Assembly: GCF_965219815.1 (NCBI RefSeq)
Contig: NZ_OZ244791.1
Coordinates: 2,604,491 to 2,668,490, forward strand
Source: Candidatus Poriferisocius sp.
GTDB taxonomy: Bacteria > Actinomycetota > Acidimicrobiia > Acidimicrobiales > Bin134
Length of the DNA stretch: 64,000 nucleotides
Reading direction: 5' to 3'
The notes under the pieces are model-generated. The model saw only the letters and a list, made by a program, of their open reading frames with translations. It searched no databases and was not told where the DNA came from. Of the stretch, positions 2,573-29,563 are shown piece by piece (positions within the stretch are counted from its first letter, which is position 1; every line of letters starts with the position of its first letter). The translations under genes and the position numbers were made by a program.

Positions 2573-4139
2573 ACGCCCGGAATTGGGATCTGTCGTTGAG
2601 ACGACGAATGGGCCTATTCGGGGGACGGTCGTTGACACGCCCTATGGGCCGGTTTGCCAGTACTTGGGGATTCCGTATGGCAAGCCGCCACTGGGGGAGC
2701 GCCGGTTCTGCGCCCCTGAGGCGGCGGAGCCGTGGAATGAGGTGCTCGATGCGAGTGCTTTCGGGCCCGATCCCGTCCAAGCGGTCGATGGCCCCTACAC
2801 CGGGGTGATTCCGGGGGCGGATGCGACTTCGGTTTCGGAGGACTGCTTGACCCTGAATGTGTGGGCGCCGTCCGAGGCGGATGCTGATCTGCCGGTTTTG
2901 GTCTGGATCTACGGGGGTGCGTTCCTCACCGGTGGAGGCTCGTTCCCGCTCTATCACGGGGCGAGGCTGGCGGCTGAGCAGCAGGTGGTGGTGGCCTCGG
3001 TGAACTACCGGGTGGGAGCGCTGGGGTTCATGGACCTGCGCCAGGTGCCGGGCGGGGAAGAGACTACGGCCAACTGCGGTCTCCACGATGTGCGGCTCGG
3101 CCTCGACTGGGTGGCGGCCAATGCGGGAAATTTCGACGGCGATCCGGGCACCCTGACCGCGTTCGGCGAGTCGGCGGGGGCGGGGTCAATACTGCATCTC
3201 CTGGGCAGTCCGGGCATCTCGGCGGTGCTGCGGCGAGCCATCATGCAGAGCCCCGGCGTCGACATGACCCAATCGCCCGACGTTGCGGCCACAGTGGCGC
3301 AAGCCTTCATGAAACATGCCGGGGTGGGCGACGTCGCCGGACTCCGGGAGATGGAGCCAGAGGCAATTTTCGAGGCCCAATTCCCGACGGTCATGGACAT
3401 GTTTGCCACTGCGGGGGCCATGCCGTTCCACCCCGTGATCGACGGATCGCTCATCTCGGCAAAGCCGGCAGAGCTGCTCCAAGCGGGAACAGCGACCGAC
3501 GTCGATGTGCTGATCGGCGCCACAGCCCACGAGCTGCGCCTGTTCCATCAGGAACTGCCCGAGGAGAGCGCCGAGCAGATACTCCATCACACGGTGAGCG
3601 GTCACATAAGCGAGAGGACTGGTACCGAGCCCTCTCCCGGCGACGTGAAGGCTGTAGTGGGGGAGTACCGCCAAGCTGCCGAGGGCACACCCTGGACCTC
3701 CGACTCCGACATTCTGACCGCCATCAACACCGATGTCTCCATGAGGGAGCCGATAGAGCGCATCGCCGACTTTCGGGCCGCAACTGGGGCAAGTACCTAC
3801 CTCTACGACTTCCGGTGGTGCTCCCTGGCCGATCCGGATAAGGGGGCCTTCCATGCCATCGACTTGCCCTTCGCCTTCGACAGCTTTCACGTGGACGGCT
3901 GGCGCGAGTTCATTGGTGCCGACAACGCCGCCGAAGCGCTAGGCCGAGGCATGCGATTGGCATGGGCGGCCTTCGCCCGTACTGGAGACCCTTCAACCGC
4001 CGAGCTCGGCCCCTGGCCCCGCTACGACCTCAACCAGCGCACGACCATGATTCTCGACGACACCCCAACTTTGGCTTCCGACCCGTTCCAAAGAGAGAGG
4101 TCCATGTGGCGGTCAGCCGCCAGAGGGGACTCTCAGTAG
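2565..4139 (+). CDS. Type-B carboxylesterase / lipase family protein
   Basis: Track ORF 2205..4139 trimmed to the ATG at 2565 (MNRRPELGSVVETTNGPIRG). Motifs seen are YLGIPYGKPPLGERRF, EDCLTLNVW, WIYGGAF and the nucleophile elbow FGESAGAGS. The start overlaps the permease stop by 8 nt. Confidence 0.9.
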   Translation: MNRRPELGSVVETTNGPIRGTVVDTPYGPVCQYLGIPYGKPPLGERRFCAPEAAEPWNEVLDASAFGPDPVQAVDGPYTGVIPGADATSVSEDCLTLNVWAPSEADADLPVLVWIYGGAFLTGGGSFPLYHGARLAAEQQVVVASVNYRVGALGFMDLRQVPGGEETTANCGLHDVRLGLDWVAANAGNFDGDPGTLTAFGESAGAGSILHLLGSPGISAVLRRAIMQSPGVDMTQSPDVAATVAQAFMKHAGVGDVAGLREMEPEAIFEAQFPTVMDMFATAGAMPFHPVIDGSLISAKPAELLQAGTATDVDVLIGATAHELRLFHQELPEESAEQILHHTVSGHISERTGTEPSPGDVKAVVGEYRQAAEGTPWTSDSDILTAINTDVSMREPIERIADFRAATGASTYLYDFRWCSLADPDKGAFHAIDLPFAFDSFHVDGWREFIGADNAAEALGRGMRLAWAAFARTGDPSTAELGPWPRYDLNQRTTMILDDTPTLASDPFQRERSMWRSAARGDSQ

Positions 4140-4978
4140 ATCTCGGGCACGAAGGTCTGGTCTGACATGGGAGGGCGCACGTAGCCGGTTCTGTCTTGGC
4201 GCTCGGGGAGCTCGACTTCCTCCCAGGGCACTTCCTCGTAGGGGATCATCGACAACAGGTGTGAGATGCAGTTCAGCCGGGCTGCCTTCTTGGAGTCGGC
4301 GTTGACCACATACCAGGGGGCCTGCTTGATGTCGGTGTGGGCGAACAGGGTGTCCTTGGCCTTGGAGAACTCAACCCACCGGGTTCGGCCTTCGATGTCG
4401 ATCGGTGAGAGCTTCCAGCGCCGCATCGGGTCGTTGATCCGGTTGTGGAACCGGCGCTCTTGCTCCTCGTCGCTCACCGAGAACCAGTACTTGATCAAGA
4501 TGATCCCCGACCGCACCAGCATCCGCTCGAACTCCGGACACGACCGCAGGAACTCCCGGTACTCCTCCTCGGTGCAGAAGCCCATCACCGGCTCCACCAC
4601 CCCCCGGTTGTACCAACTGCGGTCGAACAGGATCATCTCCCCGGCGGCGGGCAGCTCGGCCACATAGCGCTGGAACCACCACTGGGTTTTCTCCCGGTCG
4701 CTGGGCGTGCCTAGCGCCACCACCCGAACCACCCGGGGGTTGGTGCGCTCGGCGATCCGCTTGATCACCCCGCCTTTTCCGGCCGCGTCGCGCCCCTCGA
4801 AGATCACCACCACCTTGAGCCCCTTGTGGCGGATCCAGCGCTGCAACCGCACCAACTCCTCTTGGAGTCGAGACAGCTCCCGCTCGTAGTCCTTCTTCTT
4901 GATCCTCGGACGCGGCTCAGGCCTCGGCGCATCCGCTCCGGCGATTCCCAGAACATCGTGGTCAGGTTCTGGACTCAT
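4133..4978 (-). CDS. ppk2: Polyphosphate kinase 2 (PPK2) family protein
   Basis: ORF track. The Walker-A-like FEGRDAAGKGG, the segment LFDRSWYNRGVVEPVMGF, and the whole-length pattern (KYWFSVSDEEQERRF, RWKLSPIDIEGR) are typical of PPK2. Confidence 0.9.
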   Translation of the reverse strand: MSPEPDHDVLGIAGADAPRPEPRPRIKKKDYERELSRLQEELVRLQRWIRHKGLKVVVIFEGRDAAGKGGVIKRIAERTNPRVVRVVALGTPSDREKTQWWFQRYVAELPAAGEMILFDRSWYNRGVVEPVMGFCTEEEYREFLRSCPEFERMLVRSGIILIKYWFSVSDEEQERRFHNRINDPMRRWKLSPIDIEGRTRWVEFSKAKDTLFAHTDIKQAPWYVVNADSKKAARLNCISHLLSMIPYEEVPWEEVELPERQDRTGYVRPPMSDQTFVPEIY

Positions 4979-5097
4979 GTCTTGAGGGTAGTTCCGGCAC
5001 TATTTTCCGACAATAGGGTCAATTGATCGGGTTCGAGCCGCAGCGGGGAGACCCGACCAGTAATTCATGCCACGGGGTCATATGATCCCAGTCGCGG

Positions 5098-6267
5098 GTG
5101 GGTCCGTCGGGGGCATCAAGAGTCTTCGGAGGATCGCAAACCTTGAATTACTACGTGATAGCCGCCGCCGTTGTGGTCGGAACGGCGACGGGTGCCGCTT
5201 CGGTCTATTGGATAAACCGGGGGGTCGGTACCGGATGGATTGTCCTCGGTGCAGCGAGCGTCGGGCTCGGCTGCACAATGGTTTTGACCGCCGGCGCGCT
5301 GCTTGTCGCCGGACCAGATGCATACCTCGTGGTCCATGCGGTGTACCTGGCCCTTGTCATTGGACTGCCGCTGGCGGGTGCAATCGTTCTGGCGTTTGGC
5401 CGTCCGTGCTCGCCGGCCATCATTGCTCTCTGCGTGCTGTCATTGGCAGCGATTCCCGTCGGCGTATACGCCACTCATATCGAGCCGTTTTGGCTGCGGG
5501 TGGATGCAGTGAAGGTGGCCGTCGACGGGATTGGTGAGGAGGTTCGCATCGGCGTGCTGGCCGATCTTGAGACCACTTCGATCGGCAGCTATGAGAACGG
5601 CGTAGTGGATCGGCTGATTGCCCAAAGACCCGACATAGTTGTGATACCAGGGGATCTCCATTCACTGGACTCTGACCTGATCGATGAGTGGTCTCCGCAA
5701 TTCACGGAACTGATCCAACGGCTCACCGACGCCGTGCCGTTCGTCTATTTGGTGAACGGCCATTCAGACACTGCTTCCGACCTTCGGCGGATCGCATGGG
5801 GAACCGGAGCCCGGGTTCTCGACAATGAGATCGAGACGTTTGAGCTCAAAGGAAACGTCTTCCATATCGCGGGAATATCCCTGCTTGACGATGTGTATGA
5901 GCCTGCCGCTCGAAGGGTGGCCGAGCGCTTCGCCCATGACGAATTCCCCGGTGTGCGTTTGCTGCTGGCCCACGAACCAGACGCGATTCTTCTGCTGCAA
6001 GGCAACTCCGTAGACCTGCTCATCGCGGGCCACACCCACGGCGGACAAGTAGCCATCCCCTTCATTGGACCTCCCGTCACTGCGTCGAGGGTGCCAAGGC
6101 AAGTTGCCGCTGGAGGTCTGCACGAGCTTCACGGCACCCCGACCTATGTGTCCACTGGAGTGGGGCGCGAGCGGGGCAACGCCCCTCAACTTCGATTCGG
6201 CGTCCGCCCGTCGATCGGAATCATCGACCTGGTGGCCGAGGAATGGCCTGAGGCCGGAACTGGCTAA
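5098..6267 (+). CDS. Membrane-anchored metallophosphoesterase (calcineurin-like)
   Basis: ORF track (GTG start; true start uncertain). The N-terminal 140 aa or so are hydrophobic. The phosphoesterase motifs seen are IPGDLHS, LLLAHEPD and AGHTHGGQ. Confidence 0.75.
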   Translation: MGPSGASRVFGGSQTLNYYVIAAAVVVGTATGAASVYWINRGVGTGWIVLGAASVGLGCTMVLTAGALLVAGPDAYLVVHAVYLALVIGLPLAGAIVLAFGRPCSPAIIALCVLSLAAIPVGVYATHIEPFWLRVDAVKVAVDGIGEEVRIGVLADLETTSIGSYENGVVDRLIAQRPDIVVIPGDLHSLDSDLIDEWSPQFTELIQRLTDAVPFVYLVNGHSDTASDLRRIAWGTGARVLDNEIETFELKGNVFHIAGISLLDDVYEPAARRVAERFAHDEFPGVRLLLAHEPDAILLLQGNSVDLLIAGHTHGGQVAIPFIGPPVTASRVPRQVAAGGLHELHGTPTYVSTGVGRERGNAPQLRFGVRPSIGIIDLVAEEWPEAGTG

Positions 6268-7367
6268 CGCAGGCTCTCCAGATCGGCGACGTTCATCACT
6301 CGGAGGGCGGGGGGGATGTCCTCCACTACCTGGTTGTAGCGCAGGCCCATGGTGCCGTGGCGGTGGTGGGCGGTGTCGATCCAGTTGGCGAAGCCGGGGT
6401 CCTCGTCGGCCACGATGATGCGGGCGGTGCCGTCGGGCTCGTACACCGCGCTGTGCTTGTTGACGGTGACCTGGAGCCACTCGTAGTCGAGCGACTCCTC
6501 CCAAATGTTGTTGAGCTGGAAGTTCCAGTAGTACGCCTCGATGGGCGGGACGTCTATCACCAGGGCCTGGCCCGGTTCGAGCGTCCAGTAGCCGTGGCGG
6601 AACAACTGGGTGGGGTCGCCCCAACCGCCCGGCTTGTCGTGAGTGGGTAGGAACTCAAGCGTGTTGGGCCGCTCCTGGAACATGTCCAGCCACTCGACGA
6701 ACCGCCTGGCGATGCCGTGAACCTCCAACGCGGCCCGGGCCAGGCCCATGGTCAGCTTCTGCGCCGACAACGGGGGCACAGGATCGCTGGGGCCGTTGAG
6801 GCACTCGATTTGAAGCTCGGAGGGCCGTTCGGTGGTCCGATCGAGATAGAAGTTGCGAATGGCGATCTGGTTGGTCTCCGGCCCTGTCGGCAGCCACCGC
6901 TGACCGGGCTCCAGTTCGGGCTCGTTGATGCTAGCGATCACGTCCACGTACTCGTTCGGCTGGGGATGGTTGAACGCAAGGGCGCCCTGTCGGCCGGGGG
7001 GTGGCGCCCCTTGCCAGAAGCCGCCGGAGAAAGAGTTCAGGCTCAGGTAGTTGACGGTGCCCCGCGGTCCATGGATGCGGTAGTCGAAGGCGCCTTTGAT
7101 GCCGACGCTCTGGTAGAGGGCATCGGGGTTGTCGCAGCCGATCTTCAGGTTGTGGGCTATCGGCAGGATCTGGGCATAGCCGGGCCCGTGGTTCTCAAGG
7201 CGCCCGAGGCCACCTCGGGTTAGACGGCTCAGATAGCGGAAGCCCTCCAGCCGGTCGAGTTCGTCGGTGCTGTTGTCGAGGATGATCTGGCCGGCTTCCT
7301 TCAGGTTGTCGCAGAAATCGGCCCAGACCTTGCCGTTGACTGCGTTCTCTAGGATCTCATCGCTCAT
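6264..7367 (-). CDS. DUF1214-like protein (paralog of 39097..40218)
   Basis: Track ORF 6264..7877 trimmed to the ATG at 7367 (MSDEILENAVNGKVWADFCDNLKEAG). The trim follows alignment with the paralog's N-terminus (KTLDDVAEQRVVSGKAWEEFCDSLKAAG). Shared C-terminal block: YWNFQLNNIWEESLDY .. ADEDPGFANWIDTAHH. Confidence 0.65.
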   Translation of the reverse strand: MSDEILENAVNGKVWADFCDNLKEAGQIILDNSTDELDRLEGFRYLSRLTRGGLGRLENHGPGYAQILPIAHNLKIGCDNPDALYQSVGIKGAFDYRIHGPRGTVNYLSLNSFSGGFWQGAPPPGRQGALAFNHPQPNEYVDVIASINEPELEPGQRWLPTGPETNQIAIRNFYLDRTTERPSELQIECLNGPSDPVPPLSAQKLTMGLARAALEVHGIARRFVEWLDMFQERPNTLEFLPTHDKPGGWGDPTQLFRHGYWTLEPGQALVIDVPPIEAYYWNFQLNNIWEESLDYEWLQVTVNKHSAVYEPDGTARIIVADEDPGFANWIDTAHHRHGTMGLRYNQVVEDIPPALRVMNVADLESLR

Positions 7368-7475
7368 CGGTGTTCGCCTCCTGCCGTAGCTGTGTGCCAA
7401 AAGGCTAGTGGTGCTCCTGGTTTTGGCTTCTAGCCGAAGCAGGGTGTGGCTGTGGCGGGTAGATAGCATCGGCTC

Positions 7476-7766
7476 GTGACCCAGAGCAGGGCAGAGCGGC
7501 GGTTGGCTGAATTGACCGAACGGCTGAAGCGGCTGCGAGCCGACCTGGAAGTGGCCGAGGAGCAATACCTGCACCTCGAGGACCTGGCTGAAGATGCCCG
7601 ACTTCGGGCACTGGTATCGGAAACCCCAGCCGCAGAGCGCCAGCATCGCGATGCCGCCCGCCAGGCCGAGACCATGGCCCGGCATCGGGCCCGGCTCCGG
7701 GAGGAGATCGGCAGCTTGGAGGAGCAGCAAGACGATCTGCTGGACAGGTTCTATTCCGATGTCTGA
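7476..7766 (+). CDS. Small charged coiled-coil protein, hypothetical
   Basis: ORF track (GTG start). The 96-aa sequence is rich in Arg/Glu/Leu/Ala with a heptad-like character. Its stop overlaps the ATG of the downstream ANTAR regulator (ATGTCTGA junction at 7759-7766), which implies translational coupling. Confidence 0.5.
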   Translation: MTQSRAERRLAELTERLKRLRADLEVAEEQYLHLEDLAEDARLRALVSETPAAERQHRDAARQAETMARHRARLREEIGSLEEQQDDLLDRFYSDV

Positions 7767-8445
7767 CCCGTCGGCCCAGCCCGGCTCCACTTCGGCGGCC
7801 GAACCGTCGGCCCAGCCCGACTCTTCGCAATCTCCCGATCCGGTGCGGATCGTGTTGGCCGAGGACGAGGCCATCATCCGCCTCGACTTGCGGGAGACCC
7901 TGGAGGAGGAGGGCTACGTGGTGGTGGGGGAGACCAGCCGGGGCGACCAGGTGCTCGACTTAGTGCGGGAGAAGCGCCCCGACGTGGCCATACTCGATGT
8001 GAAGATGCCGGGGACCGACGGGATCACCGCCGCCGGTCAGATTCGCGACGAGCAGCTGTGCGCGGTGCTGCTGCTTACCGCCTTCAGCCAGCGGGACCTG
8101 ATTGCCCGAGCCGCCGACGCCGGCGCGCTGGCCTACCTGGTGAAGCCGTTCGAGCGGGCCGAGCTGGTGCCCGCGGTGGAGGTGGCCCTGGTGCGGTTCC
8201 GAGAGCTGGTGGCGCTCAACCACCAGGTGGAGCGGGCCGAGGCCCGATTGGAAGCCCGCAAGGCCATCGACCGGGCCAAGGGGCGGCTCATGGACGCGCT
8301 CGCCATGTCGGAGTCCGATGCCTACAGCCACATTCAGCACCAGGCCATGAGCGAGCGCCGTCCCATGGCCGAGGTGGCCGCCGAGATCGTCGAGATGGGC
8401 GACGACCAGCTGAGAGCCTTGAGCGGGGTCCGCGCCGATGGCTGA
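7759..8445 (+). CDS. pdtaR: ANTAR-domain response regulator (PdtaR-like)
   Basis: Track ORF 7594..8445 trimmed to the ATG at 7759. A receiver domain is present (VRIVLAEDEAIIRLDL, DVAILDVKMPGTDG, LLLTAF, YLVKPF), followed by an ANTAR helix region (RKAIDRAKGRLMDALAMSESDAYSHIQHQAMSERRPMAEVA). It sits upstream of polA, as in mycobacterial synteny. Confidence 0.85.
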   Translation: MSDPSAQPGSTSAAEPSAQPDSSQSPDPVRIVLAEDEAIIRLDLRETLEEEGYVVVGETSRGDQVLDLVREKRPDVAILDVKMPGTDGITAAGQIRDEQLCAVLLLTAFSQRDLIARAADAGALAYLVKPFERAELVPAVEVALVRFRELVALNHQVERAEARLEARKAIDRAKGRLMDALAMSESDAYSHIQHQAMSERRPMAEVAAEIVEMGDDQLRALSGVRADG

Positions 8446-11173
8446 GGGGGGCGCCGCGGGCCAAGACCCGGGCACCGTCATGCTGGTGGACGGGAACTCG
8501 CTGGTCTATCGAGCTTTTTTCGCCGTGCCCGAGGACATGACCACTGCCAGCGGACAGGTGACCAACGCGGTGTACGGCTTCACCAGGATGCTCCTGACCC
8601 TGCTGCGCGACCACCAGCCCGACCGGGTAGGGGTGGCCTTCGACCGGCGCGAGCCCACCTTCCGCCACGAGCGGGTGTCCAGCTATAAGGCCAACCGCGA
8701 GGAGACTCCCGAAGCGCTGCGCCAGCAGATGGGCATTGTCCGCCAGCTGGTGGACACGCTGGGGATCGCCGCGGTGGACCACGTGGGAGTGGAGGCCGAC
8801 GATGTGATCGCCACGCTGGCCACCCAGGCCCGCGACCGGGGTGAGAACGTGATCGTGGTGACCGGCGACCGGGATGCCTACCAACTGGTGGAGGACCCCC
8901 ACGTTCGAGTGCTCTACAACAAGCGGGGGGTGTCCGACTACGCCCTCTACGACGAGGCCGGCATTGAGGAGCGCACTGGGGTGAAGCCGTCGGACTACGT
9001 GGCCTACGCCGCCCTGCGAGGCGACCCCTCCGACAACCTGCCCGGTGTGAACGGGGTGGGGGAGAAGACCGCGGCCAAGCTCATCAACGCCTACGGTTCC
9101 ATCGACGAGCTGTATCAGCACGTGGCCGACCAGACCCCGAAGCTCCAGCAGAACCTGGACGAGGCCCAAGACCGGGTGAAGCTCAATTTGGAGCTGATGG
9201 AGCTGTTGCGAGACGTCCCGCTCGATCTGGGCGTGGACGATCTGGATTTGGCCCCGCCCAAGACCGCCGAGATCGAGGAGCTGTTCGACTTCTTGGAGTT
9301 CAGGAGCCTCCGCGACTTCGTGACCGAGGTGCTGGACGTGGATCTGGGCGGCGACGGCGACGCCGGTGGGGCATTGGAGGCCGCGGTGGAGACCATCTCA
9401 ACCGCAGACGCCGCTGCCGAAGCGCTGAATCGGCTGGCCGATAGCGGCGAGCCGGTGGCCCTGGCCGCCGGCTGGGGCGATCCGTTCGACCGGAGCCAGC
9501 CCCATCGACGCCGGCTGCTGGGCCTGGCCCTGGTTGCCGACCGCGACGCCGGCCAAGCGGTGTGGCTGCCCTCCGAGCTGTTGGAATCCTCGGGCCACGA
9601 CGCCCTGGCCGCATTCTTCAGCGCTGGCACCCCCTTCATGGGCCACGACGTCAAGCCGTTTGTGTTGTGGCTTCTGTCGCAGGGCATCGATGCCGCCGGG
9701 CTGACTCTGGATGCCCAGATCGCCGCCTACCTCCTAGACCCGGCCAGCGGGCGATTCGGGCTCGATGATCTGATGCGTACGCACACGGCGATGGAGTTGC
9801 CGGGGATCGATCAGCCCGACGAGGGCCGGCTGTTCGACGACGATTCCGGCGATTCGGTGGCGCCGGCGATGCAGGCCGGCCTTCAGGCCCTGGCCGTGTC
9901 CCACCTGGCTGCTCCACTCCTGGACGCCTTGGACGCCCAAGGCCTGAGAGGCCTCAACGATGACATGGAGGTGCCCCTGGTTCGGGTGCTGGCCCGCATG
10001 GAGCACATGGGCATCGGGGTGGACGTGGAGGGATTGACCGGCTTGCGCGACCGGCTGGTGGCCGACGCCGAGCGGCTTCGGGCGCTGGTGATCGATGCCG
10101 CGGGCGAGGGGAGCTTCAACGTGAACTCCTCCAAGCAGGTGGGCGAGCTGCTGTTCGACAAGCTGGGCCTTCCCCCTCAGAAGAAGACCAAGACCGGGGC
10201 CTACTCCACCGACGCCGGCACCCTGGAGAAGCTGCGGGGCGAGCATCCGGTGGTGGATGCGCTGCTGGACTACCGGGAAGTGGAGAAGCTGCGCTCCACC
10301 TATGGGGAGGGCCTGGTGGCCGCCGTGGGGCTCGAGCCCGACAACCGCATCCGGGCCACGTTCAACCAGACGGTGGCCCGCACCGGGCGGCTCAGCTCCG
10401 ACGCCCCCAACCTGCACAACATCCCGGTGCGCACCGAGACCGGGCGGGTGTTCCGGGAGGTGTTCGTGGCTGCCGAGGGCTGCGAGCTGCTGGTGGCCGA
10501 CTACAACCAGATCGAGCTGCGCTGCATCGCCCACCTGGCCGAGGATCCCGGGCTGATCCACGCGTTCGAGTCGGGCCAGGACGTCCACACCTCCGTGGCC
10601 GCCCAGGTGTTCGGCATCGAACCCGGCGCGGTGGGCATCGAGGAGCGGTCCACCGCCAAGATGGTGTCCTACGGTCTGGCCTACGGCATGGAGGCTTACG
10701 GCTTGGGATCGCGGCTGAACATCCCCACCGGAGAGGCCGCGGTGATCCTCGACGCCTACTTCGGGGCCTTCCCTGCGCTGCGGGAGTACATGGATCGAGC
10801 GGTGGCCGAGGCCCGAACCCGGGGCTACACCGAGACCCTGTTCGGGCGGCGGCTTCGGATTCCCGAGATCAACTCCTCCAATTTCCGGCTTCGCCAAGCG
10901 GCCGAGCGCCAGGCCATGAACGCCGGCATCCAGGGCTTGGCCGCCGACATCTTCAAGGTGGCCCTGGTGAGGCTCGACCACGCGCTCCAAGACCGGGGGT
11001 TCGCCAGCCGCATCATCCTCCAAGTACACGACGAGGTGATTCTGGAGGTTCCCGAGGGTGAGCACGACGGAGTGGCCGAGCTCACCGTGGCAACCATGGC
11101 CGAGGCCTACGACCTGAGGGTTCCCCTCGAAGTACACCTGTCGTCGGGGCACACCTGGGCCGACGCCAAGTAG
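8438..11173 (+). CDS. polA: DNA polymerase I
   Basis: ORF track, 911 aa. There is a 5'-nuclease N-terminus (LVDGNSLVYRAFFA, GDRDAYQL, SDNLPGVNGVGEKTA). Family-A polymerase motifs follow (DYNQIELRCIAHL, RSTAKMVSYGLAYG, QVHDEVILEV). The ATG overlaps the pdtaR stop (ATGGCTGA). Confidence 0.97.
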   Translation: MAEGGAAGQDPGTVMLVDGNSLVYRAFFAVPEDMTTASGQVTNAVYGFTRMLLTLLRDHQPDRVGVAFDRREPTFRHERVSSYKANREETPEALRQQMGIVRQLVDTLGIAAVDHVGVEADDVIATLATQARDRGENVIVVTGDRDAYQLVEDPHVRVLYNKRGVSDYALYDEAGIEERTGVKPSDYVAYAALRGDPSDNLPGVNGVGEKTAAKLINAYGSIDELYQHVADQTPKLQQNLDEAQDRVKLNLELMELLRDVPLDLGVDDLDLAPPKTAEIEELFDFLEFRSLRDFVTEVLDVDLGGDGDAGGALEAAVETISTADAAAEALNRLADSGEPVALAAGWGDPFDRSQPHRRRLLGLALVADRDAGQAVWLPSELLESSGHDALAAFFSAGTPFMGHDVKPFVLWLLSQGIDAAGLTLDAQIAAYLLDPASGRFGLDDLMRTHTAMELPGIDQPDEGRLFDDDSGDSVAPAMQAGLQALAVSHLAAPLLDALDAQGLRGLNDDMEVPLVRVLARMEHMGIGVDVEGLTGLRDRLVADAERLRALVIDAAGEGSFNVNSSKQVGELLFDKLGLPPQKKTKTGAYSTDAGTLEKLRGEHPVVDALLDYREVEKLRSTYGEGLVAAVGLEPDNRIRATFNQTVARTGRLSSDAPNLHNIPVRTETGRVFREVFVAAEGCELLVADYNQIELRCIAHLAEDPGLIHAFESGQDVHTSVAAQVFGIEPGAVGIEERSTAKMVSYGLAYGMEAYGLGSRLNIPTGEAAVILDAYFGAFPALREYMDRAVAEARTRGYTETLFGRRLRIPEINSSNFRLRQAAERQAMNAGIQGLAADIFKVALVRLDHALQDRGFASRIILQVHDEVILEVPEGEHDGVAELTVATMAEAYDLRVPLEVHLSSGHTWADAK

Positions 11174-19563: not shown

Positions 19564-22422
19564 GTGGCCGACGAGATCGTCATCCATGGTGCGCGTGAGC
19601 ACAACCTGCGCGACGTCCATCTGACGATACCCCGCGACAAGCTCATCGTATTCACCGGCATCTCCGGGTCGGGCAAGTCGTCGTTGGCCTTCGACACCAT
19701 CTACGCCGAGGGGCAGCGCCGCTATGTGGAGTCGCTGTCGGCCTACGCCCGGCAGTTCCTGGGCCAGATGGACAAGCCCGATGTGGACTTCATCGACGGT
19801 CTGTCGCCGGCCATCTCCATCGATCAGAAGAGCGCCTCCCGCAATCCCCGCTCCACGGTGGGGACCATCACCGAGGTGTACGACTACCTGCGGCTGCTGT
19901 TCGCCCGCATCGGCATCCCCCACGATCCCGAGACCGGGGAGCGCCTAGTGCGCCAGACCCCCCAGCAGATCGTCGACCGGGTGATGGAGATGGACGAGGG
20001 GGTTCGGTTCCAGGTGCTGGCCCCGGTGGTGCGGGGCCGCAAGGGCACCTACGACACGATGCTGGCCGAGTTGGCCTCCGACGGGTTTGCCCGGGCCATC
20101 GTGGACGGCGACCTGATCGAGCTGGACAACGGCATCGACGACCTGGACCTGGCCCGATACGAGATGCACAGCATCTCGGTGGTGGTCGACCGGCTGGTGA
20201 TGCGGGAGGGCATCGAGCGGCGGCTCACCGAGTCGATGGAAACCGCCCTGGGTCTGGCCGAGGGCGTGGCCGAGCTGATGGTCATGCCCCAGGATGCCGA
20301 CTCCGACGAGGAGCCCCAGACCATCACGTTCTCCCAGCACCTGTCCCGGCCCTCCGACGGCAAGTCGTTCGAGGAGCTGGCCCCCCGCAACTTCTCCTTC
20401 AACTCGCCCTACGGGGCGTGCACATCGTGCGATGGACTGGGGTCGGTGTTCGAGGTGGATCCCCAGCTGGTGATTCCCGACCCCGACCTGAGCCTGGAGG
20501 ACGGCGCCATCGCCCCGTGGGCCAAGGGCCACAACCAGTACTTCAAGCGCCTGGTGGAATCGGTGGCCGAGGATCGGGACATCCCCATGGACCAGCCGTG
20601 GGGAAGCCTCGATCGCCAGCACCACGACCTGCTGCTCTACGGCAAGGGCATCGCCAACCAGCGCACCGAGGTCCGGTTCCGCAACCGCTATGGCCGGGTC
20701 CGCCGCTACAACGCCCGTTACGAAGGCGTGATCCCCTATCTCCAGCGCCGCCACAGCGAGTCGGACTCCGACGCCGTGCGGACCCAGATCGAGGGGTACA
20801 TGCGGGAGGTTGCCTGCTCAACGTGCCAGGGTGCCCGGCTGAATCCGCTGTCGCTGGCCGTGACCGTGGACGGCCGCACCATCGACGAGGTGTGCGGGTT
20901 GTCGATCCGGGATTCGGCCGCCGCCCTGGCCTCGCTGGAGTTGTCGGAGCGCGACCAGGCCATCGCCGGACAGGTGCTCAAGGAGATCAATGCCCGACTC
21001 AAGTTCCTGCTCGACGTGGGGCTGGAATATCTGACTCTGGGGCGGTCGGCTGGCACTCTCAGCGGGGGAGAGGCCCAGCGCATCCGGCTGGCGTCGCAGA
21101 TCGGCAGCGGCCTCGTCGGCGTGCTCTACGTGCTGGACGAGCCCTCCATCGGCCTGCACCAGCGGGACAACCGCCGCCTCATCGACACCCTGGAGCGGAT
21201 GCGCGATCTGGGCAACACCGTGCTGGTGGTGGAGCACGACGAGGAGACCGTGCGGGTGGCCGACCACGTGGTGGACATCGGCCCCGGCGCCGGCGAGCAC
21301 GGCGGCACTGTGGTCCACTCCGGGACGGTGGCCGGCCTGATGAAGAACAAGGGGTCGCTCACCGGCCAGTACCTGTCGGGAAAGAAGTCGATCCCGATTC
21401 CTGAGCACCGGCGGAATCCCGGCGACGACTGGCTCACCATCCGGGGCGCCCGAGAGCACAACCTGGCCGACATCGACATCGACATCCCCCTGGGCTGCTT
21501 CGTGACCGTGACCGGGGTGTCGGGCTCGGGCAAGTCCACCCTGGTCAACGACATCTTGTACCGGTCTCTGATGCAGCGCATCTACAAGTCCAAGATCCCG
21601 CCTGGTCTGCACAAGGGCATCGATGGCACCGAGGCCCTCGACAAGGTGATCAACATCGACCAGCAGCCCATCGGCCGCACCCCCCGGTCGAACCCGGCCA
21701 CCTACACCAGCGTGTTCGACCACATCCGCAAGCTGTTCGCCCAGACCCCCGAGTCGCGGGTGAGGGGCTACATGCCGGGCCGGTTCTCCTTCAACGTGAA
21801 GGGCGGCCGCTGCGAGGCCTGCTCGGGCGACGGCACCATCAAGATCGAGATGCACTTTCTGCCCGACGTGTACGTGCCCTGCGAGGTGTGCAAGGGGGCC
21901 CGCTACAACCGAGACACCCTCGATATCGAGTTCAAGGGCAAGACCATCTCCGAGGTGCTCGACATGTCGTGCGCAGATGCCCTGGAGTTCTTCGGCAACC
22001 AGCCGGCCATCACCCGCCACATGCAGACCCTGGTGGACGTCGGCCTGGGCTACATCCGCCTCGGCCAGCCCGCCCCCACGCTGTCGGGGGGTGAGGCCCA
22101 GCGGGTGAAGCTGGCCTCCGAGCTGGCCAAGCGCCCCACCGGCCACACCATCTACATCCTCGATGAGCCCACCACCGGCCTGCACTTCGACGACGTCCGC
22201 AAGCTGCTGGCCGTGCTCAGCCGCCTGGTGGACCAGGGCAACACCGTGCTGGTGATCGAGCACAACCTCGACGTGGTCAAGACCGCGGACTGGATCGTGG
22301 ACCTCGGCCCCGAGGGCGGCGACAACGGCGGCACCGTCGTGGCCGAAGGCGCTCCTGAGCTAGTAGCCCGCTCCGACCACAGCTACACCGGCAAATTCCT
22401 CCGCCCGGTGCTGGGCATCTGA
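19564..22422 (+). CDS. uvrA: Excinuclease ABC subunit A
   Basis: ORF track (GTG start), 952 aa. It has two ABC ATPase modules ([61 protein letters not shown]) and zinc-finger Cys pairs. Confidence 0.97.
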
Positions 22423-22490: not shown

Positions 22491-24023
22491 ATGGATCGGC
22501 GCGACTTTTTGCGGGCCGCCGTTGTCGCCACCGGGGGCGCCGTCACCGTTCCCCTGGTTGGCAGTGCAGTGGGCGCCCAACCCGGCTCCGGGCCCTATGG
22601 GGCTCTCGACGGCATAGAGCCTGACGAGAACGGCATCCTCTTGCCCCCCGGGTTCACGTCTCGAATAGTGGCGATGGCCGGTGAGCCGGTGGGGAATTCC
22701 GACTACCGGTGGCTTGTCTACCCCGACGGGGCCGCCGTGTTCGACGACGGCGAGGGTGGCTGGTACCACACGGTCAACAGCGAGGTGTTCCGACCAGGTT
22801 TCGCGGGAGTTTCGGCCATTCACTACGGCCCCGACGGCGAAATCCTCGATGCTTACCGGTTGCTAGGGGACAGCAACGCCAATTGCGGCGGCGGGCCGAC
22901 CCCATGGGGAACCTTCTTGTCCGGTGAGGAGGACTTCACCGGCTACGGGGTGATCTGGGAGTGCGATCCATCCGGCGCCAAGCCGTCGGTGTCCCATCCG
23001 GCGATGGGGATCTTCACCCACGAAGCGGCCGCGGTCGATCCCGATCGCCAACAGGTGTATATGACCGAGGACCAGTACGACGGGCTGTTCTACCGGTTCA
23101 CCCCCACCAACTACCCGGATTTGAGCGAGGGATTGCTTGAGGCTGCCCGCGTGGAGGAAGACGGGAGTGTCACTTGGATTGAAGTTCCCGACCCGTCGGC
23201 CGCCGAGACGCTTACTCGCCAGCAGCTGCCCGGAGAGGCGACGGCGTTCTTGGGTGGCGAGGGCATCTGGTATCACAACGATGTCGTGTTCTGGGCGACC
23301 AAATTCGACAACATCATCCATGCGATCAATACCGCCGACCAGACCTACAGCCGGATCTACGAGGCCGACCCGGCCATGGTGTCGGAGGGAACCGCGATCC
23401 TCTCAGGGGTGGACAACCTCACCGTGGACGGAGGCAGCGGCGACGTGTATGTGGCTGAAGACGGCGGCAACATGGAGATCGTCATCATCACGCCCGAGGG
23501 CGAGGTCGCCCCGTTCTTGCGCGTTCTGGACCAGGACGGGTCGGAGATCACCGGGCCGGTCTTCAATCCCCGGCGCGATCGCCTCTACTTCTCCAGCCAG
23601 CGCGGTCAGGCCCCCAACAATGCCGAAGATGTCCTTCCCGAATCTGAGATCACGGGGAACTTCACCGGCATCACCTACGAGGTAACCGGACCCTTCCGCG
23701 GCATTGTGCCCGAAGAGCCGGAGCCAACACCGACTGCCGCTCCGACCGTCGTCACAACCCCAACCCCCACGGCCACATCAACTACCGCTCCCACAGCCGC
23801 CCCCACAGCCGCGCTCACACCGGCACCAACCCCGGCCCCCACGGCCGCATCAACCAGGGCAGCCACCCCCGCACCAACCGAAACCATCGCCGCCGCAGCC
23901 GACACCGGTGGCAACGGAGGAGGAGGCGGAAACACCGGAGTCTTCGTCGGCATAGGCGTAGCCGCCGCAGCCGTAGTAGCCGGAGCCCTAGTGGCGACCC
24001 GAAGAAGGCGCCCCGCCGAATAA
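22491..24023 (+). CDS. Tat-exported DUF839 (PhoX-like beta-propeller) protein with Pro/Thr/Ala linker and C-terminal membrane anchor
   Basis: ORF track. The twin-arginine signal is MDRRDFLRAAVVATGG. The DUF839-type motif is NCGGGPTPWGTFLSGEED. A PT/A-rich linker spans about nt 23710-23895. The tail is AADTGGNGGGGGNTG-VFVGIGVAAAAVVAGALVA-TRRRRPAE. Confidence 0.7.
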   Translation: MDRRDFLRAAVVATGGAVTVPLVGSAVGAQPGSGPYGALDGIEPDENGILLPPGFTSRIVAMAGEPVGNSDYRWLVYPDGAAVFDDGEGGWYHTVNSEVFRPGFAGVSAIHYGPDGEILDAYRLLGDSNANCGGGPTPWGTFLSGEEDFTGYGVIWECDPSGAKPSVSHPAMGIFTHEAAAVDPDRQQVYMTEDQYDGLFYRFTPTNYPDLSEGLLEAARVEEDGSVTWIEVPDPSAAETLTRQQLPGEATAFLGGEGIWYHNDVVFWATKFDNIIHAINTADQTYSRIYEADPAMVSEGTAILSGVDNLTVDGGSGDVYVAEDGGNMEIVIITPEGEVAPFLRVLDQDGSEITGPVFNPRRDRLYFSSQRGQAPNNAEDVLPESEITGNFTGITYEVTGPFRGIVPEEPEPTPTAAPTVVTTPTPTATSTTAPTAAPTAALTPAPTPAPTAASTRAATPAPTETIAAAADTGGNGGGGGNTGVFVGIGVAAAAVVAGALVATRRRRPAE

Positions 24024-24600: not shown

Positions 24601-25839
24601 TCAGTTCAGAAGGACGGAATTTCGTTGGGCTGGACGATATGTATCCACCCCGGAGTCGGGGAAGGGGTCGGGAGGCGGATTGACGCTGCGACGTCCAGTG
24701 TCAGATTCGCAAGTGACTTCCCAGCCGTCGTCATGGATGCTGTGATGGCACTTGTTGCACACCAGCACGAGGTTGGCGAAGTCGGTGGGCCCTCCGTTCC
24801 TCCAGAATTGGACGTGGTGGGCGAAGCACCGGTGTGCACTGGCCCCGCAACCGATGCACTCCTTGTCCCGATAAATCAAGGCGGCCCGTTGAGCGTCAGA
24901 AGCGGTGCGCCTCTTGCGACCCAGGTTCATCTCCTGGGTGGCAGTACGGAACACACCCGGCAGCAGGTCGGCGTCGCAGGCCAGTCGGATCAGCTCGCTA
25001 GTTGGGATCGGGCTGCCGTCGGCCAGGCGGGCGTTGACCAGTTCTTGGTTGACAACGTCGTAGTCGGCCACCACCATCAGCGCGATGCCCTTGGCCTTGC
25101 CCTTTCCCGGTTCAAGTATCAGCTCAGCCAGTGCGTCGGCCATCCGCTGCTGGGGAGTTCGCCGGCTCTTCGGATCCTCCGCATTCCACAACTCCCGCTC
25201 TTTGGCAGCTAGCACCGTGTCAATGTGAGCGCCGGTTGTGGGATCAAACTCCCCTGACAGCACGAACATCCCGGTCTCGCGGCTTACAAACGCCCTCGCG
25301 GTGCGGTTCTCACGTTGACGGTCGAAAATCGACTGCCCATCGTCGTCCGACATCTCCTGTTGGTGGCTTCGCAGCGTCTTGGCGAACTTGTCGTAGTTCT
25401 CCCGCTGCGCGGCCTCGGCCAGCACCGACTCGTCGATTGGACCCTCAGAAGCCGCCCGAGCAATCAATCGAGCATGACCCGCCGGGATCTCTCCAGCCTC
25501 CAACCCCGCCGAAGTAACCGGCAGTTCGGCCAATTGGGCTGAAGACTTCACGTCCCGGGTGGCCTCTCTGCGGGACGATTGCAGCTCTTCGCGCAAAACC
25601 CGCTCGACTGCTTCCACGCCGTGCTGATCCCGCTCGGCATTGACAAGGCGTGTCTTCCATCCGGCCAAACAAGCCTCAGCCCGCCCCACCGAAACCAAAG
25701 CAGCCCGCCGCTCAGCCCCCGACATCTCTGCCGGGTCTGTCACGGGCACCTCCAAAGTGACCTCAAACTCCCTGGTCACAGCCTCATTAGCCATGCCAGC
25801 GACTATACCCACCACCTGTGACAGTTGGTCTCCCACCAC
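24601..25839 (-). CDS. DUF222-type HNH endonuclease (REP13E12-like family)
   Basis: ORF track (GTG at 25839; ATG at 25794 is an alternative start). The long helical N-terminal region is typical of actinobacterial DUF222 proteins. The C-terminal HNH motif is CIGCGASAHRCFAHHVQFWRNGGPTDFANLVLVCNKCHHSIHDDGW. Confidence 0.85.
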   Translation of the reverse strand: MVGDQLSQVVGIVAGMANEAVTREFEVTLEVPVTDPAEMSGAERRAALVSVGRAEACLAGWKTRLVNAERDQHGVEAVERVLREELQSSRREATRDVKSSAQLAELPVTSAGLEAGEIPAGHARLIARAASEGPIDESVLAEAAQRENYDKFAKTLRSHQQEMSDDDGQSIFDRQRENRTARAFVSRETGMFVLSGEFDPTTGAHIDTVLAAKERELWNAEDPKSRRTPQQRMADALAELILEPGKGKAKGIALMVVADYDVVNQELVNARLADGSPIPTSELIRLACDADLLPGVFRTATQEMNLGRKRRTASDAQRAALIYRDKECIGCGASAHRCFAHHVQFWRNGGPTDFANLVLVCNKCHHSIHDDGWEVTCESDTGRRSVNPPPDPFPDSGVDTYRPAQRNSVLLN

Positions 25840-25950
25840 CTACCCCCTGCGGGATGACACGCAGCGAGATATGAGCTTGTCGCTCCCTAGGAGTAGTCTG
25901 AATCCCTCTGTATAGCCTGTGGATAACTCCGCAGCGGAAAGGGAGCGGTC

Positions 25951-26706
25951 ATGGCTGACCGAACCGGCATTGAGTGGACCGAGACAACCTGGAATCCAAC
26001 CACCGGCTGCGATCGGGTCTCCATTGGCTGTGACAACTGCTACGCGCTCACTTTGGCCAAGCGGCTCAAGGCAATGGGCAATCCCAAGTACCAGAACGAC
26101 GGAGACCCCAAAACCAGTGGTCCAGGATTCGGCTTGACGCTCCACGAGTACCAGTTGGAACTTCCTTACCGGTGGAGGGCACCCAGGTTGGTGTTCGTGA
26201 ACTCGATGAGCGACCTCTTCCACCCTGAGGTACCGCTGGAGTTCATCCAGAAGGTGTTCGCCGTAATGGCCGACACGCCACAACACACCTACCAGATACT
26301 GACGAAGCGCTCGCAGCGCCTCGCTGCACTCGCTGAAGAGCTGGACTGGCAAGAGAACATCTGGATGGGTGTGACTGTAGAAACGGAGCGATATGCCTTC
26401 CGGATCGACCATCTACGCTCAGTCAACGCCGCAGTGAGGTTCATCAGCGCTGAGCCCCTACTGGGCCCTCTTCCTGATCTCAACCTGTCGGGGATCAATT
26501 GGCTGATTGCCGGCGGCGAGAGCGGACACGGTGCCCGCCCTGTCGAGGAATCATGGGTTCGGGATCTTCGTGACCAGTGCATTGCCGCGGGCACTGCCTT
26601 CTTCTTCAAGCAGTGGGGTGGTCGCACTCCCAAAGCAAATGGACGCGAGTTGGACGGCATCCACCATGACGACATGCCAGACGGCTTAGTTTGCGCTGGC
26701 TCCTAG
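25951..26706 (+). CDS. DUF5131 / phage Gp37-Gp68 family protein (three-Cys motif)
   Basis: ORF track, 251 aa. Motifs seen: TGIEWTETTWNPTTGC-x6-C-x2-C (C20, C27, C30; nt 26008-26040), FVNSMSDLFH, FISAEPLLGPL, WLIAGGESG and FFFKQWGG. AAGGGAG lies upstream of the ATG. Confidence 0.85.
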   Translation: MADRTGIEWTETTWNPTTGCDRVSIGCDNCYALTLAKRLKAMGNPKYQNDGDPKTSGPGFGLTLHEYQLELPYRWRAPRLVFVNSMSDLFHPEVPLEFIQKVFAVMADTPQHTYQILTKRSQRLAALAEELDWQENIWMGVTVETERYAFRIDHLRSVNAAVRFISAEPLLGPLPDLNLSGINWLIAGGESGHGARPVEESWVRDLRDQCIAAGTAFFFKQWGGRTPKANGRELDGIHHDDMPDGLVCAGS

Positions 26707-26724
26707 CCCCGAAAGAAGGAACCA

Positions 26725-27678
26725 ATGAACAATCTCTTTAGCGATGAAGTTCTGGACGCCCTCGTAGTGGAGATCAATTCGGGACGATCCATTTCCAGGC
26801 CCAAGGATGCACTTTCCGAAGCGCGGGAATTCCATGGGTGGACATTGAATAAGCTAGAAGTATTTGACTTATATCTGAAGCTTTACCGGATAGTTGCGGG
26901 GAACGGTACCTGCATTGACGCATTTGCTGGCACAGGGAGAGGATTGTCCACAGGAAATGGAGAGACAGTACATGTTGATGGCTCGTCCCTCATCGCAGCA
27001 AAGAGCGGCGCATTCTCCAATTTACATCTGATAGAAAGAGATAATGCTAGTTTTCAGCTTTTGAACATCGAAATTATGTCGCTGAAGCCAAGTCAGCAGT
27101 CAAAAATACAGACGTACAATGATGACTGCAATTTGAAAATTCCAGATTTACTACAGGGAGGTAAGCTTGATCCTTCGAAGCCATGCTTCGCATTCTTAGA
27201 TCAAGAATCGACTCAGCTAGATTGGGCGACTATTGAAGCGCTTGCGGGATGGAAGACGTATGAACCCCCGCCGACTGAAAGAGGTAGGCCAAAGGCTTGC
27301 AAAACTGAGTTGTGGATTCTTTTCAACACATATCAAGCAATCACTCGGTTATGGCCCACCGATCGACAGAAATACCCTGAGGCGTTCAGCCCCCAAACAT
27401 TGGATAGAATCTTTGGAGGTCGGGAAGTCTGGTGGGATCTTTGGCAGGACGAACGGTCCTTTAGTGCTCTAGTGGAGCGGTATTGCGACCGGTTGTACGA
27501 GATCGGGTACCAGTATGTCCTACCTCAATTGATAAGGGATCCTGGTACTGGCCGCCCTCAATACCACATGATTCACGCGACAGACCACCCTAGTGCCATC
27601 TCATTCATGAGATGGGCGAAACGAAGCAGCGATGGCTATGAAAACCAGCAGCTTCTCGGCATGGAGACCTCCACGTAG
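26725..27678 (+). CDS. TcmP-like (three-Cys-motif partner) protein with a class-I methyltransferase-like fold
   Basis: ORF track, 317 aa, starting 18 nt after the DUF5131 stop with AAGGA upstream. Motif I is CIDAFAGTGRG (nt 26917-26937). It is followed by HLIERD and, at the motif-IV position, AFLDQES. G+C is markedly low: my count is 70/180 for 27001-27180. Confidence 0.65.
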   Translation: MNNLFSDEVLDALVVEINSGRSISRPKDALSEAREFHGWTLNKLEVFDLYLKLYRIVAGNGTCIDAFAGTGRGLSTGNGETVHVDGSSLIAAKSGAFSNLHLIERDNASFQLLNIEIMSLKPSQQSKIQTYNDDCNLKIPDLLQGGKLDPSKPCFAFLDQESTQLDWATIEALAGWKTYEPPPTERGRPKACKTELWILFNTYQAITRLWPTDRQKYPEAFSPQTLDRIFGGREVWWDLWQDERSFSALVERYCDRLYEIGYQYVLPQLIRDPGTGRPQYHMIHATDHPSAISFMRWAKRSSDGYENQQLLGMETST

Positions 27679-27919: not shown

Positions 27920-28067
27920 GTCTCAAATCTAATCCGGGGAGCCCTTCAAACCCTGACGAAATTCCGGCAGCGCAGTAATGGCTCACGTTTTGCCGCGCCC
28001 AGGCCTTGGCCAATGCGTTGTATGGTTTCAGCTAGGCGGAGTTGGTGGGCCCAGGAGGACGATCGGG

Positions 28068-28295
28068 ATGCAGAGGTTTACGTTCACCCTGGTTGTTGAG
28101 GATCGCGATCTCAAGACGGATGAAGTTGTCGACGCGTTGTTCGAGGCAGGCTGTGATGATGCGCTAGTCGGGTCGTCCGAGGGGGTTCAATTCTTGGACT
28201 TCGATCGTGAGGCAGGTTCCGTTGAGGAGGCAGTTCGGTCGGCGGTGGCCGATGTGGAGTCAGTTGAAGGACTTAAGTTCGCTCGTCTGGGCTGA
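28068..28295 (+). CDS. Small acidic hypothetical protein
   Basis: Track ORF 27978..28295 trimmed to the ATG at 28068, which is preceded by AGGAGG at about 9 nt. The sequence is MQRFTFTLVVEDRDLKTDEVVDALFEAGCDDALVGSSEGVQFLDFDREAGSVEEAV... I recall seeing similar small proteins in actinobacteria but cannot name a family. Confidence 0.45.
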   Translation: MQRFTFTLVVEDRDLKTDEVVDALFEAGCDDALVGSSEGVQFLDFDREAGSVEEAVRSAVADVESVEGLKFARLG

Positions 28296-29251: not shown

Positions 29252-29563
29252 ATGGCGCTTGAGCAAGACCCCAACCAGCAGCCGGATGACTTCGATATCC
29301 GGATCTTGCCGGAGATGGCGGGAGGTGTTTGGGCGAACTTCGCCAGAGTCAGCCACTCACCCTACGAATTCACCTTGGATTTCGTGCGGCTGGATTTCAC
29401 GACTGCGGACCCCATTCAGGGGGTTCTTGTGCAACGGGTCAACATGTCGCCTCAATTTGTCGAGCAGCTCATCAAGGTGCTTGACGCTAACCTCACTTTG
29501 TGGGCTTCGATTGTTGTGCCCACGGAGATGCGATGGTTGGAGGAGGAGCAAGACGATGAGTAG
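29252..29563 (+). CDS. DUF3467-family protein
   Basis: ORF track, 103 aa. GGVWANFARVSHSPYEFTLDFVRLD matches the conserved DUF3467 core as I recall it. GAGGA lies about 9 nt upstream. Confidence 0.6.
   Translation: MALEQDPNQQPDDFDIRILPEMAGGVWANFARVSHSPYEFTLDFVRLDFTTADPIQGVLVQRVNMSPQFVEQLIKVLDANLTLWASIVVPTEMRWLEEEQDDE

Follow-up and report, generated by a model that had tools for sequence, protein, structure and literature searches.

An orphaned copy of the mobile DUF5131-TcmP cassette in Candidatus Poriferisocius and its candidate role in DNA-directed defence

We describe a two-gene cassette, DUF5131 followed by tcmP, in a 64,000-nucleotide stretch (the window) of contig NZ_OZ244791.1 of Candidatus Poriferisocius sp., by its name a sponge-associated Acidimicrobiia organism. 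With both genes intact, the pair represents the mobile DUF5131-TcmP cassette, which is listed as the candidate defence systems PDC-M41/M30. In this lineage the cassette ancestrally closes a type I restriction-modification (R-M) operon at its 3' end; the window copy has been orphaned from such an operon, and the orphan is not decaying. We give an even chance to the interpretation that the cassette is a two-subunit, S-adenosylmethionine (SAM)-dependent accessory defence module directed at DNA, in which TcmP would present the target and the DUF5131 protein would perform radical chemistry. The pair itself is already known: NCBI names both proteins and PADLOC catalogues the cassette, and the families, their pairing and the suspicion of a defence role are on record.

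Results

The window pair is an intact copy of a catalogued cassette

A first-pass annotation, made from the sequence alone, had read gene 1 as a DUF5131 protein and gene 2 as a TcmP protein. Gene 1 matched PF07505/DUF5131 with an E-value of 3.9e-99 and 331.5 bits against a gathering score of 28.9, and the alignment was near full length (gene 1 residues 5-243 against profile positions 2-243 of 243). The motifs on which that reading leaned were found in their places, namely TGC-x6-C-x2-C from residue 18 (C20/C27/C30), SMSDLFH at 85, ISAEPLLGPL at 165, WLIAGGESG at 184, and FFFKQWGG at 217. Across 59 sequences, the most divergent of which share 38% identity, no change was seen in the three cysteines or in LTKR, S-x-EPLLG, GGESG, and F-x-F-KQWG. 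Additionally, gene 1 matched phrog_2045, its protein is 69% identical to the DUF5131 protein of Gordonia phage Fairfaxidum, and a weak PF17338 match was the only other Pfam family returned. Gene 1 is a distant relative, not a member, of TIGR04471 ('radical SAM mobile pair protein A', by name also half of a two-gene mobile set), which was the one further curated family that it matched, with 75 bits against a family cutoff of 355 and over residues 77-221 only.

Gene 2 was assigned to TIGR04474 (TcmP) with an E-value of 1.9e-36 and 126.3 bits against a cutoff of 53, and NCBI lists a protein of 100% identity under the name 'TcmP [Candidatus Poriferisocius sp.]'. The motifs CIDAFAGTGRG, HLIERD, and AFLDQES begin at residues 63, 101, and 156, as had been claimed. 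Likewise, the list of open reading frames (ORFs) places both genes at the coordinates first proposed, co-directional and 18 nt apart, and each has its own motif resembling a Shine-Dalgarno (SD) sequence, GGGAG at 7 nt before the gene 1 ATG and GAAGGA at 5 nt before the gene 2 ATG. Membership in the TIGR04474/PF07505 pair of NCBIfam/TIGRFAMs is exact and without structural difference; it was adjacency that gave TcmP its name.

In PADLOC, gene 1 matched M41B (8.1e-110) and M30B (6e-105), whereas gene 2 matched M41A (1.3e-16 and 2.5e-13). PDC-M41 and PDC-M30 were proposed as candidates by guilt-by-embedding in type I R-M, BREX, or DISARM (Payne et al., bioRxiv 10.1101/2024.01.29.577857), and according to the authors' supplement they have one family in common and differ only in the partner family (10.1101/2024.01.29.577857). 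The window pair resembles these systems in that both models are matched by adjacent genes forming a two-gene cassette and in that its relatives are attached to R-M genes; it differs in that the window copy is neither embedded in nor beside R-M, BREX, or DISARM. Such embedding in R-M was the discovery criterion of PDC-M41, not a requirement of the PADLOC model. The earlier suggestion of a modification or defence module agrees with this listing, as well as with the type I R-M and defence-island contexts given below.

The short DUF5131 subtype pairs obligately with TcmP

Pairing was assessed in a TcmP-profile scan restricted to one genome per species, which resulted in 40 loci; the related loci come from Acidimicrobiales metagenome-assembled genomes (MAGs). 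The expectation that the two families would be neighbours elsewhere was borne out in 36 of the 40 genomic loci, in four of the five viral contigs from IMG/VR, and in all three annotated plasmids. In the 36 genomic loci, DUF5131 lies directly upstream of tcmP on the same strand, and in most relatives the two ORFs overlap by 4 nt where the window has a spacer. The remaining four loci are L015, with TcmP at a contig edge, and L016, L025, and L034, in which the TcmP matches are truncated. The order in the window is DUF5131 then tcmP, co-directional, whereas the genes are convergent in the examined plasmids and in two Gordonia phages. In the Gordonia phages PantheRoc and Fairfaxidum the pair is adjacent, and gp41 and gp43 (annotated 'methyltransferase') matched the TcmP profile with E-values of 1e-35 and 3e-11.

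The TcmP family comprises 3,391 representative clusters at 50% identity, and the search for DUF5131 homologues returned at least 8,000 candidates. One Burkholderiales MAG carries an in-frame 595-aa DUF5131-TcmP fusion ORF (L027, 7164-8951). No further fusion of the two was found among 147 TcmP cluster representatives, which held only tandem TcmP-TcmP proteins; a 552-aa representative with tandem TcmP domains is P0395. Variations in copy number were also seen, with two DUF5131 genes in the single locus L011 (3933-4661 and 7216-7962) and two tcmP genes beside a single DUF5131 on the A. tumefaciens pAt plasmid (L051).

The window copy is orphaned from a type I R-M operon

The pair closes a type I R-M locus of the order hsdR-hsdS-hsdM-DUF5131-tcmP in 21 of the 40 loci, where it is preceded on its own strand by an orthologous type I hsdM and, further up, by hsdS and hsdR. 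The arrangement is compact in L026, where hsdR (1518-4352), hsdS (4349-5677), and hsdM (5674-7164) overlap one another and are followed by DUF5131 (7225-7971) and tcmP, the five genes spanning 1518-8918. We regard the window copy as an orphan of this R-M-linked cassette because tblastn found no hsdM, hsdS, or hsdR in the 64 kb and because homology starts just past the end of hsdM: in blastn against L007, the closest genome, it begins at window position 25877, which is position 7142 of L007, and hsdM of L007 ends at 7126. Downstream of the pair, synteny with L001-L009 extends over the genes for a 123-aa ORF, an acyl-CoA synthetase, and a Rieske protein.

The position of hsdM in the relatives is taken in the window by a DUF222-HNH gene on the opposite strand. 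The first-pass annotation had placed the pair among an HNH nuclease and toxin-antitoxin debris. The HNH neighbour is real (DUF222 5.5e-23, HNH 9e-7); the debris came down to one Phd/YefM match of 18.7 bits, under the gathering score of 29.8, and the telling ancestral setting is the type I R-M operon lost here rather than these neighbours. The DUF222-HNH gene is of the 13E12 type and could be a trace of the event by which the type I R-M genes were lost; the HNH part of its protein has a weak IscB-like match.

Beyond the R-M operons, a census of the 132 nearest neighbour ORFs with Pfam and PADLOC counted 16 HsdM and also contained PD-T7-1/5-like proteins, ResIII helicases, TIR, PLD, AbiEii-type AAA, PIN, transposases, and coupling proteins of type IV secretion systems. 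On plasmids, three contexts were met: an N6-methyltransferase with a McrB-like AAA ATPase and McrC; DUF1837 with a helicase and CHAT; and a large DNA methyltransferase nearby. In S. meliloti, a tcmP gene adjoins hna, and in Gordonia prophages tcmP belongs to the lysogeny module and is transcribed directly after the immunity repressor.

The orphan pair is under purifying selection and has exchanged alleles

For the selection analysis, the window was compared with L001-L007. The ratio of nonsynonymous to synonymous substitution (omega) was 0.05-0.10 for both genes, which indicates strong purifying selection and hence an orphan that is not decaying. A decaying prophage remnant was considered and ruled out on this ratio together with the retention of every invariant residue in both ORFs. 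The synonymous divergence (dS) of the pair was 0.85-1.6, saturated for gene 2, against 0.23-0.75 for the flanking core genes. The nonsynonymous divergence (dN) of DUF5131 was about 0.085 against all relatives, whereas TcmP fell into two classes of 0.10 and 0.25.

Nucleotide identity to L007 is mosaic. It was 0.90-0.93 over the first 300 nt of gene 1 (25950-26249), 0.71-0.79 over the rest of gene 1, 0.56-0.71 over gene 2, and 0.82-0.93 just after gene 2, from 27750, with 0.88-1.00 in a flanking core gene. From this profile, tcmP and the 3' part of DUF5131 have been exchanged by recombination relative to L007. DUF5131 was always better conserved than TcmP (88/66, 76/47, and 37/27% identity across loci), and this pattern of a conserved enzyme with an exchangeable partner resembles that of catalytic and specificity subunits.

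Base composition had been used before to argue for recent horizontal acquisition. The recounts were exact (70/180 G+C in 27001-27180 and 40/60 in 20041-20100), and the AT shift of gene 2 is real: with a GC of 0.484 and a third-position GC (GC3) of 0.51, it is the lowest-GC 954-nt stretch within the 64 kb, about 5 standard deviations lower than the window mean of 0.646 (standard deviation 0.032). Gene 1 is intermediate, as had been said, with a GC of 0.587 and a GC3 of 0.71; for comparison, the GC3 of the core gene uvrA is 0.93. However, all close relatives share the low GC of tcmP (0.46-0.53), which therefore characterises the clade and does not point to an arrival in this genome. A newly acquired island in this genome was ruled out, as the cassette sits at the same chromosomal site in at least eight related genomes. 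What stands of the acquisition claim is a recent replacement of alleles, which took in tcmP together with the 3' part of gene 1.

TcmP has a SAM-methyltransferase fold with a non-canonical motif IV

The AlphaFold2 (AF2) model of gene 2 reached a predicted local distance difference test (pLDDT) of 83.3 and a predicted template modelling score (pTM) of 0.82. With Foldseek, it gave 72 PDB matches at E <= 1e-3, essentially all of them SAM methyltransferases, which supports the class I Rossmann fold first read from its motifs. Matches in the viral library BFVD were essentially all class I SAM methyltransferases as well.

Residue conservation was counted over 127 divergent family representatives. 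The motif I residues D65 and G69 are present in 123 and 119 of them, an acid at position 104, the end of beta-2 (E104 here), in 125, and the motif III-like D-x-N in 118 (D134) and 126 (N136). D159 of motif IV is present in all 127, K43 in 119, and E195 in 125. D159 is followed by P in 80 and by Q in 46 of the 127, and a conserved aromatic residue is absent; the family motif IV is D-[PQ]-x-[GST], D159-Q-E-S in the window copy, not the (D/N/S)PP(Y/F/W) of N6/N4 amino-methyltransferases. Conservation and the model together bear out what the first-pass annotation had proposed, a retained SAM pocket without the canonical amino-methyltransferase site. The family also has a conserved C-terminal motif, Y-x-M-x-[HF]-A-x-D-H, not linked to any known methyltransferase motif.

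The fold raises the question of an RNA substrate. In such a module, TcmP would be a binder resembling rRNA/tRNA methyltransferases and DUF5131 an RlmN/Cfr-like radical-SAM modifier, and the pair would alter or disable tRNA or rRNA, for instance as an abortive-infection effector with PrrC-like logic. The best PDB fold match of TcmP is indeed RlmJ, the 23S rRNA m6A methyltransferase, followed by Hen1 and Trm1, and tRNA and cap methyltransferases head the viral library matches; however, the TM scores are just 0.44-0.50, with 0.44-0.49 for RlmJ. With RlmJ/DUF519 and other class I N-methyltransferases, TcmP has in common the Rossmann fold, motif I, the beta-2 acid, and the motif III-like D-x-N, whereas it differs in motif IV, in its C-terminal motif, and in its sequence profile. 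Kinship with RlmJ was rejected at the level of sequence, as hhalign against E. coli RlmJ (NC_000913) gave a probability of 1.1%, and only the general class I fold stands for that likeness. For an RNA-targeting module that adds a second line of defence to a type I R-M locus, PrrC offers a precedent, and it resembles the present cassette in that accessory genes ride in or on an hsd locus and are able to outlive it. It is nevertheless an unrelated ABC-ATPase anticodon nuclease, whereas DUF5131-TcmP is appended after hsdM, not inserted among the hsd genes, and has no nuclease domain. Since, moreover, the fold neighbour of DUF5131 is a DNA enzyme and the genomic associations are all with DNA-directed systems, we hold an RNA-directed module to be highly improbable.

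DUF5131 is placed in the radical SAM superfamily

Searches of PDB sequences with the protein and with the family profile yielded nothing usable for either TcmP or DUF5131, and gene 1 had no sequence-level match to any PDB chain. The AF2 model of gene 1 (pLDDT 82.8, pTM 0.83) predicts a strand at 12-14, the Cys loop, a helix at 31-42, and then six parallel strands, with less confidence in the Cys region (pLDDT 63-72). Its top five PDB fold matches are spore photoproduct lyase (SPL), followed by ordinary TIM barrels such as KDO8PS, plus lipoyl synthase (LIAS). In the SFLD/RadicalSAM.org curation, DUF5131 is the radical SAM subgroup Megacluster-5-2, beside SPL (5-3). The cysteine triad had been left as 'Fe-S or Zn'; that reading is sharpened by the curated subgroup and by the closest solved fold, and gene 1 is presumed to encode the catalytic subunit, a protein of the radical SAM superfamily. 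The likeness to SPL (PDB 4fhg/4fhc) comprises a predicted partial barrel, an N-terminal Cys triad, and the neighbouring subgroup; SPL differs in its C-x3-C-x2-C spacing and in acting alone, whereas DUF5131 here has an obligate methyltransferase-fold partner. Ophion is an unrelated radical-SAM system.

Features and signals of the window

The features of the module are collected in Table 1. Scans of the window for tRNA, tmRNA, and Rfam families, in which an integration site or RNA partner was sought, returned none. A sigma-70 scan around the pair found no promoter-like site, although the organism may use other signals, and the intrinsic-terminator scan gave one match, inside gene 2 on the opposite strand and not above chance.

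Table 1. Coordinates of the DUF5131-tcmP cassette and of related features in the window
Feature	Position	Strand	Remark
Gene 1, DUF5131 / phage Gp37-Gp68 family	25951-26706	+	251 aa, ATG start
Gene 2, tcmP	26725-27678	+	317 aa, ATG start
Spacer between gene 1 and gene 2, with SD-like GAAGGA inside	26707-26724	+	18 nt
Conserved cassette leader with SD-like GGGAG	25877-25950	+	blastn homology to L007 begins here
C20-x6-C27-x2-C30 codons, presumed [4Fe-4S] ligands	26008-26040	+	invariant in 59 sequences
TcmP motif I CIDAFAGTGRG, residues 63-73, putative SAM-binding glycine loop	26911-26943	+	family conservation
TcmP motif IV position AFLDQES, residues 156-162	27190-27210	+	D159 invariant
Approximate tract of allelic replacement (3' two-thirds of gene 1 and all of gene 2)	26250-27650	+	identity to L007
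DUF222-HNH endonuclease gene, context only, outside the module	24601-25839	-	Pfam

Three further ORFs lie close to the cassette, all on the plus strand. Downstream, a 105-aa ORF (27978-28295) matches PDC-M06B (3e-17) and phrog_2620, 'excisionase and transcriptional regulator'; it is kept downstream of tcmP in several relatives, and no M06A gene was detected as its neighbour. A DUF3467 ORF (29252-29563) lies in a segment of about 700 bp that L007 and L002 either lack or carry in unalignable form, an indel within the same low-GC variable region. Upstream, between uvrA and the variable region, a 510-aa protein (22491-24023) carries RRDFLR in a twin-arginine-like N-terminus and has, besides a long linker rich in Pro, Thr, and Ala, a hydrophobic anchor at its C-terminus.

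Discussion

We propose that the two proteins together would form one SAM-dependent enzyme acting on DNA. That the genes act as a unit is supported by their recurrent adjacency, by the frequent 4-nt overlap, and by the L027 fusion. DUF5131 would be the conserved catalytic subunit, with a radical-SAM barrel, a C-x6-C-x2-C cluster site, and a fold nearest to SPL, an enzyme that works on flipped-out DNA bases. TcmP would be the fast-evolving, swapped subunit, with a class I fold that binds SAM and lacks the DPP[YF] site; it may dock on DNA, pick the target base or sequence, and hand the target to DUF5131. The role would be accessory or back-up immunity that marks or damages DNA in the discrimination of self from non-self, beside R-M systems, in prophage-mediated exclusion, and in defence islands.

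Several observations weigh against this proposal. The pair comes without a recognisable nuclease or other effector, and the window copy without an R-M partner. The literature searched held no experiment on any member and no function for DUF5131 or TcmP, in agreement with the first-pass statement that none had been experimentally defined, and no characterised pathway claims the pair. In PantheRoc gp41 (L041, 3998-4984), motif I is degenerate, YIDLMSGQP instead of D-x-F-A-G-x-G, and SAM binding may thus be lost in some family members. The fused ORF of L027 could be a true Rosetta-stone case or, coming from a MAG, an artefact of assembly or of a frameshift. Seven of nine sampled phage DUF5131 loci carry a longer, stand-alone form (310-361 aa) that lies among early or replication genes with no TcmP within 3 kb, a setting as compatible with DNA metabolism or repair as with defence. 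The M. tuberculosis tcmP homologue is tied to recA-recX and the mitomycin C response. Finally, the Cys spacing of gene 1 is C-x6-C-x2-C, not the canonical C-x3-C-x2-C, no Pfam Radical_SAM (PF04055) match was found in the protein, and its SPL fold match is weak (E 2.4e-3, TM 0.49/0.38). Variant Cys spacings do occur within the radical SAM superfamily.

These last points, with the low pLDDT of the Cys region, would suit an enzyme without radical chemistry, in which the triad holds a structural Zn, DUF5131 serves as a scaffold or as a barrel enzyme without redox activity, and the real, non-canonical methyltransferase is TcmP. The TIM-barrel matches beyond SPL and a TIGR04471 match lying outside the Cys region point the same way. 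We consider this very unlikely, as expert curation puts DUF5131 in the radical SAM superfamily, an invariant three-Cys loop after strand 1 together with an invariant GGE motif is the radical-SAM pattern, and SPL and LIAS are among the fold matches.

A role in DNA repair or damage tolerance, the main rival to our proposal, appears unlikely to us as well, to a lesser degree. DUF5131 would here be an SPL-like repair enzyme and TcmP would recognise the lesion, and the two would reverse base damage, such as aberrant alkylation by neighbouring DNA methyltransferases or inflicted during infection. SPL, the closest solved fold and RadicalSAM.org neighbour, is a DNA repair enzyme, and DUF5131 recurs beside varied DNA methyltransferases (HsdM, a C5-methyltransferase in phage Bakery, and large N6-methyltransferases on plasmids), while phage copies lie among replication and recombination genes. 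In M. tuberculosis, Rv2735c, the gene after recX, whose counterpart BCG_2748c carries a TcmP domain, is co-transcribed with recA-recX, and Rv2734-Rv2735c-recX-recA is one mitomycin-C-responsive cluster. That linkage may nonetheless reflect read-through into an inserted mobile cassette, as it is lacking in M. smegmatis, and Rv2734 is a mere candidate for the DUF5131 partner of Rv2735c. Moreover, neither a rapidly diversifying, allele-swapping partner nor enrichment in defence islands and prophage immunity regions would be expected of a repair enzyme.

Alternatively, the pair could mark the DNA of its own element against restriction by protective hypermodification, with no attack on foreign DNA. 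DUF5131 occurs in 180 sequenced phage genomes, both subunits look SAM-dependent, and the gene to which the pair is attached is hsdM, which serves modification, and not hsdR. In Gordonia phage Bakery, gp63-gp64 (L043, 1921-4475), a long DUF5131 is translationally coupled to a C5-cytosine methylase without TcmP, which hints that DUF5131 can partner different DNA methyltransferases. However, chromosomal and plasmid pairs have no consistently linked nuclease to read a mark, the temperate Gordonia phages express tcmP from the lysogeny module and not among replication genes, and TcmP lacks the canonical methyl-transfer motif IV. We therefore judge protective hypermodification quite unlikely.

The discovery itself is modest, since both families and their pairing were already catalogued. 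We advance, as a rather doubtful extension of the accessory-defence proposal, that the cassette represents a new enzymatic class of DNA-directed immunity, in which the swapped methyltransferase-fold subunit flips the base and the radical-SAM subunit modifies or damages it. If true, the reaction would either leave a base modification of a kind new to DNA or damage non-self DNA directly by radicals, and the module would be coupled to type I R-M, for example as a back-up when a phage inhibits or evades R-M, yet be able to act alone. Material for testing is at hand in the L026 operon, where coupling to type I R-M could be probed in its cleanest natural form, in the orphan but selected copy of the window, in the L027 fusion, and in the exchangeable, specificity-like tcmP. 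The cassette is widespread, in prophage immunity regions and defence islands and with a tcmP homologue in the recA operon of M. tuberculosis, and a radical-SAM enzyme with a methyltransferase-fold partner on R-M operons could reveal a new mode of DNA modification or attack.

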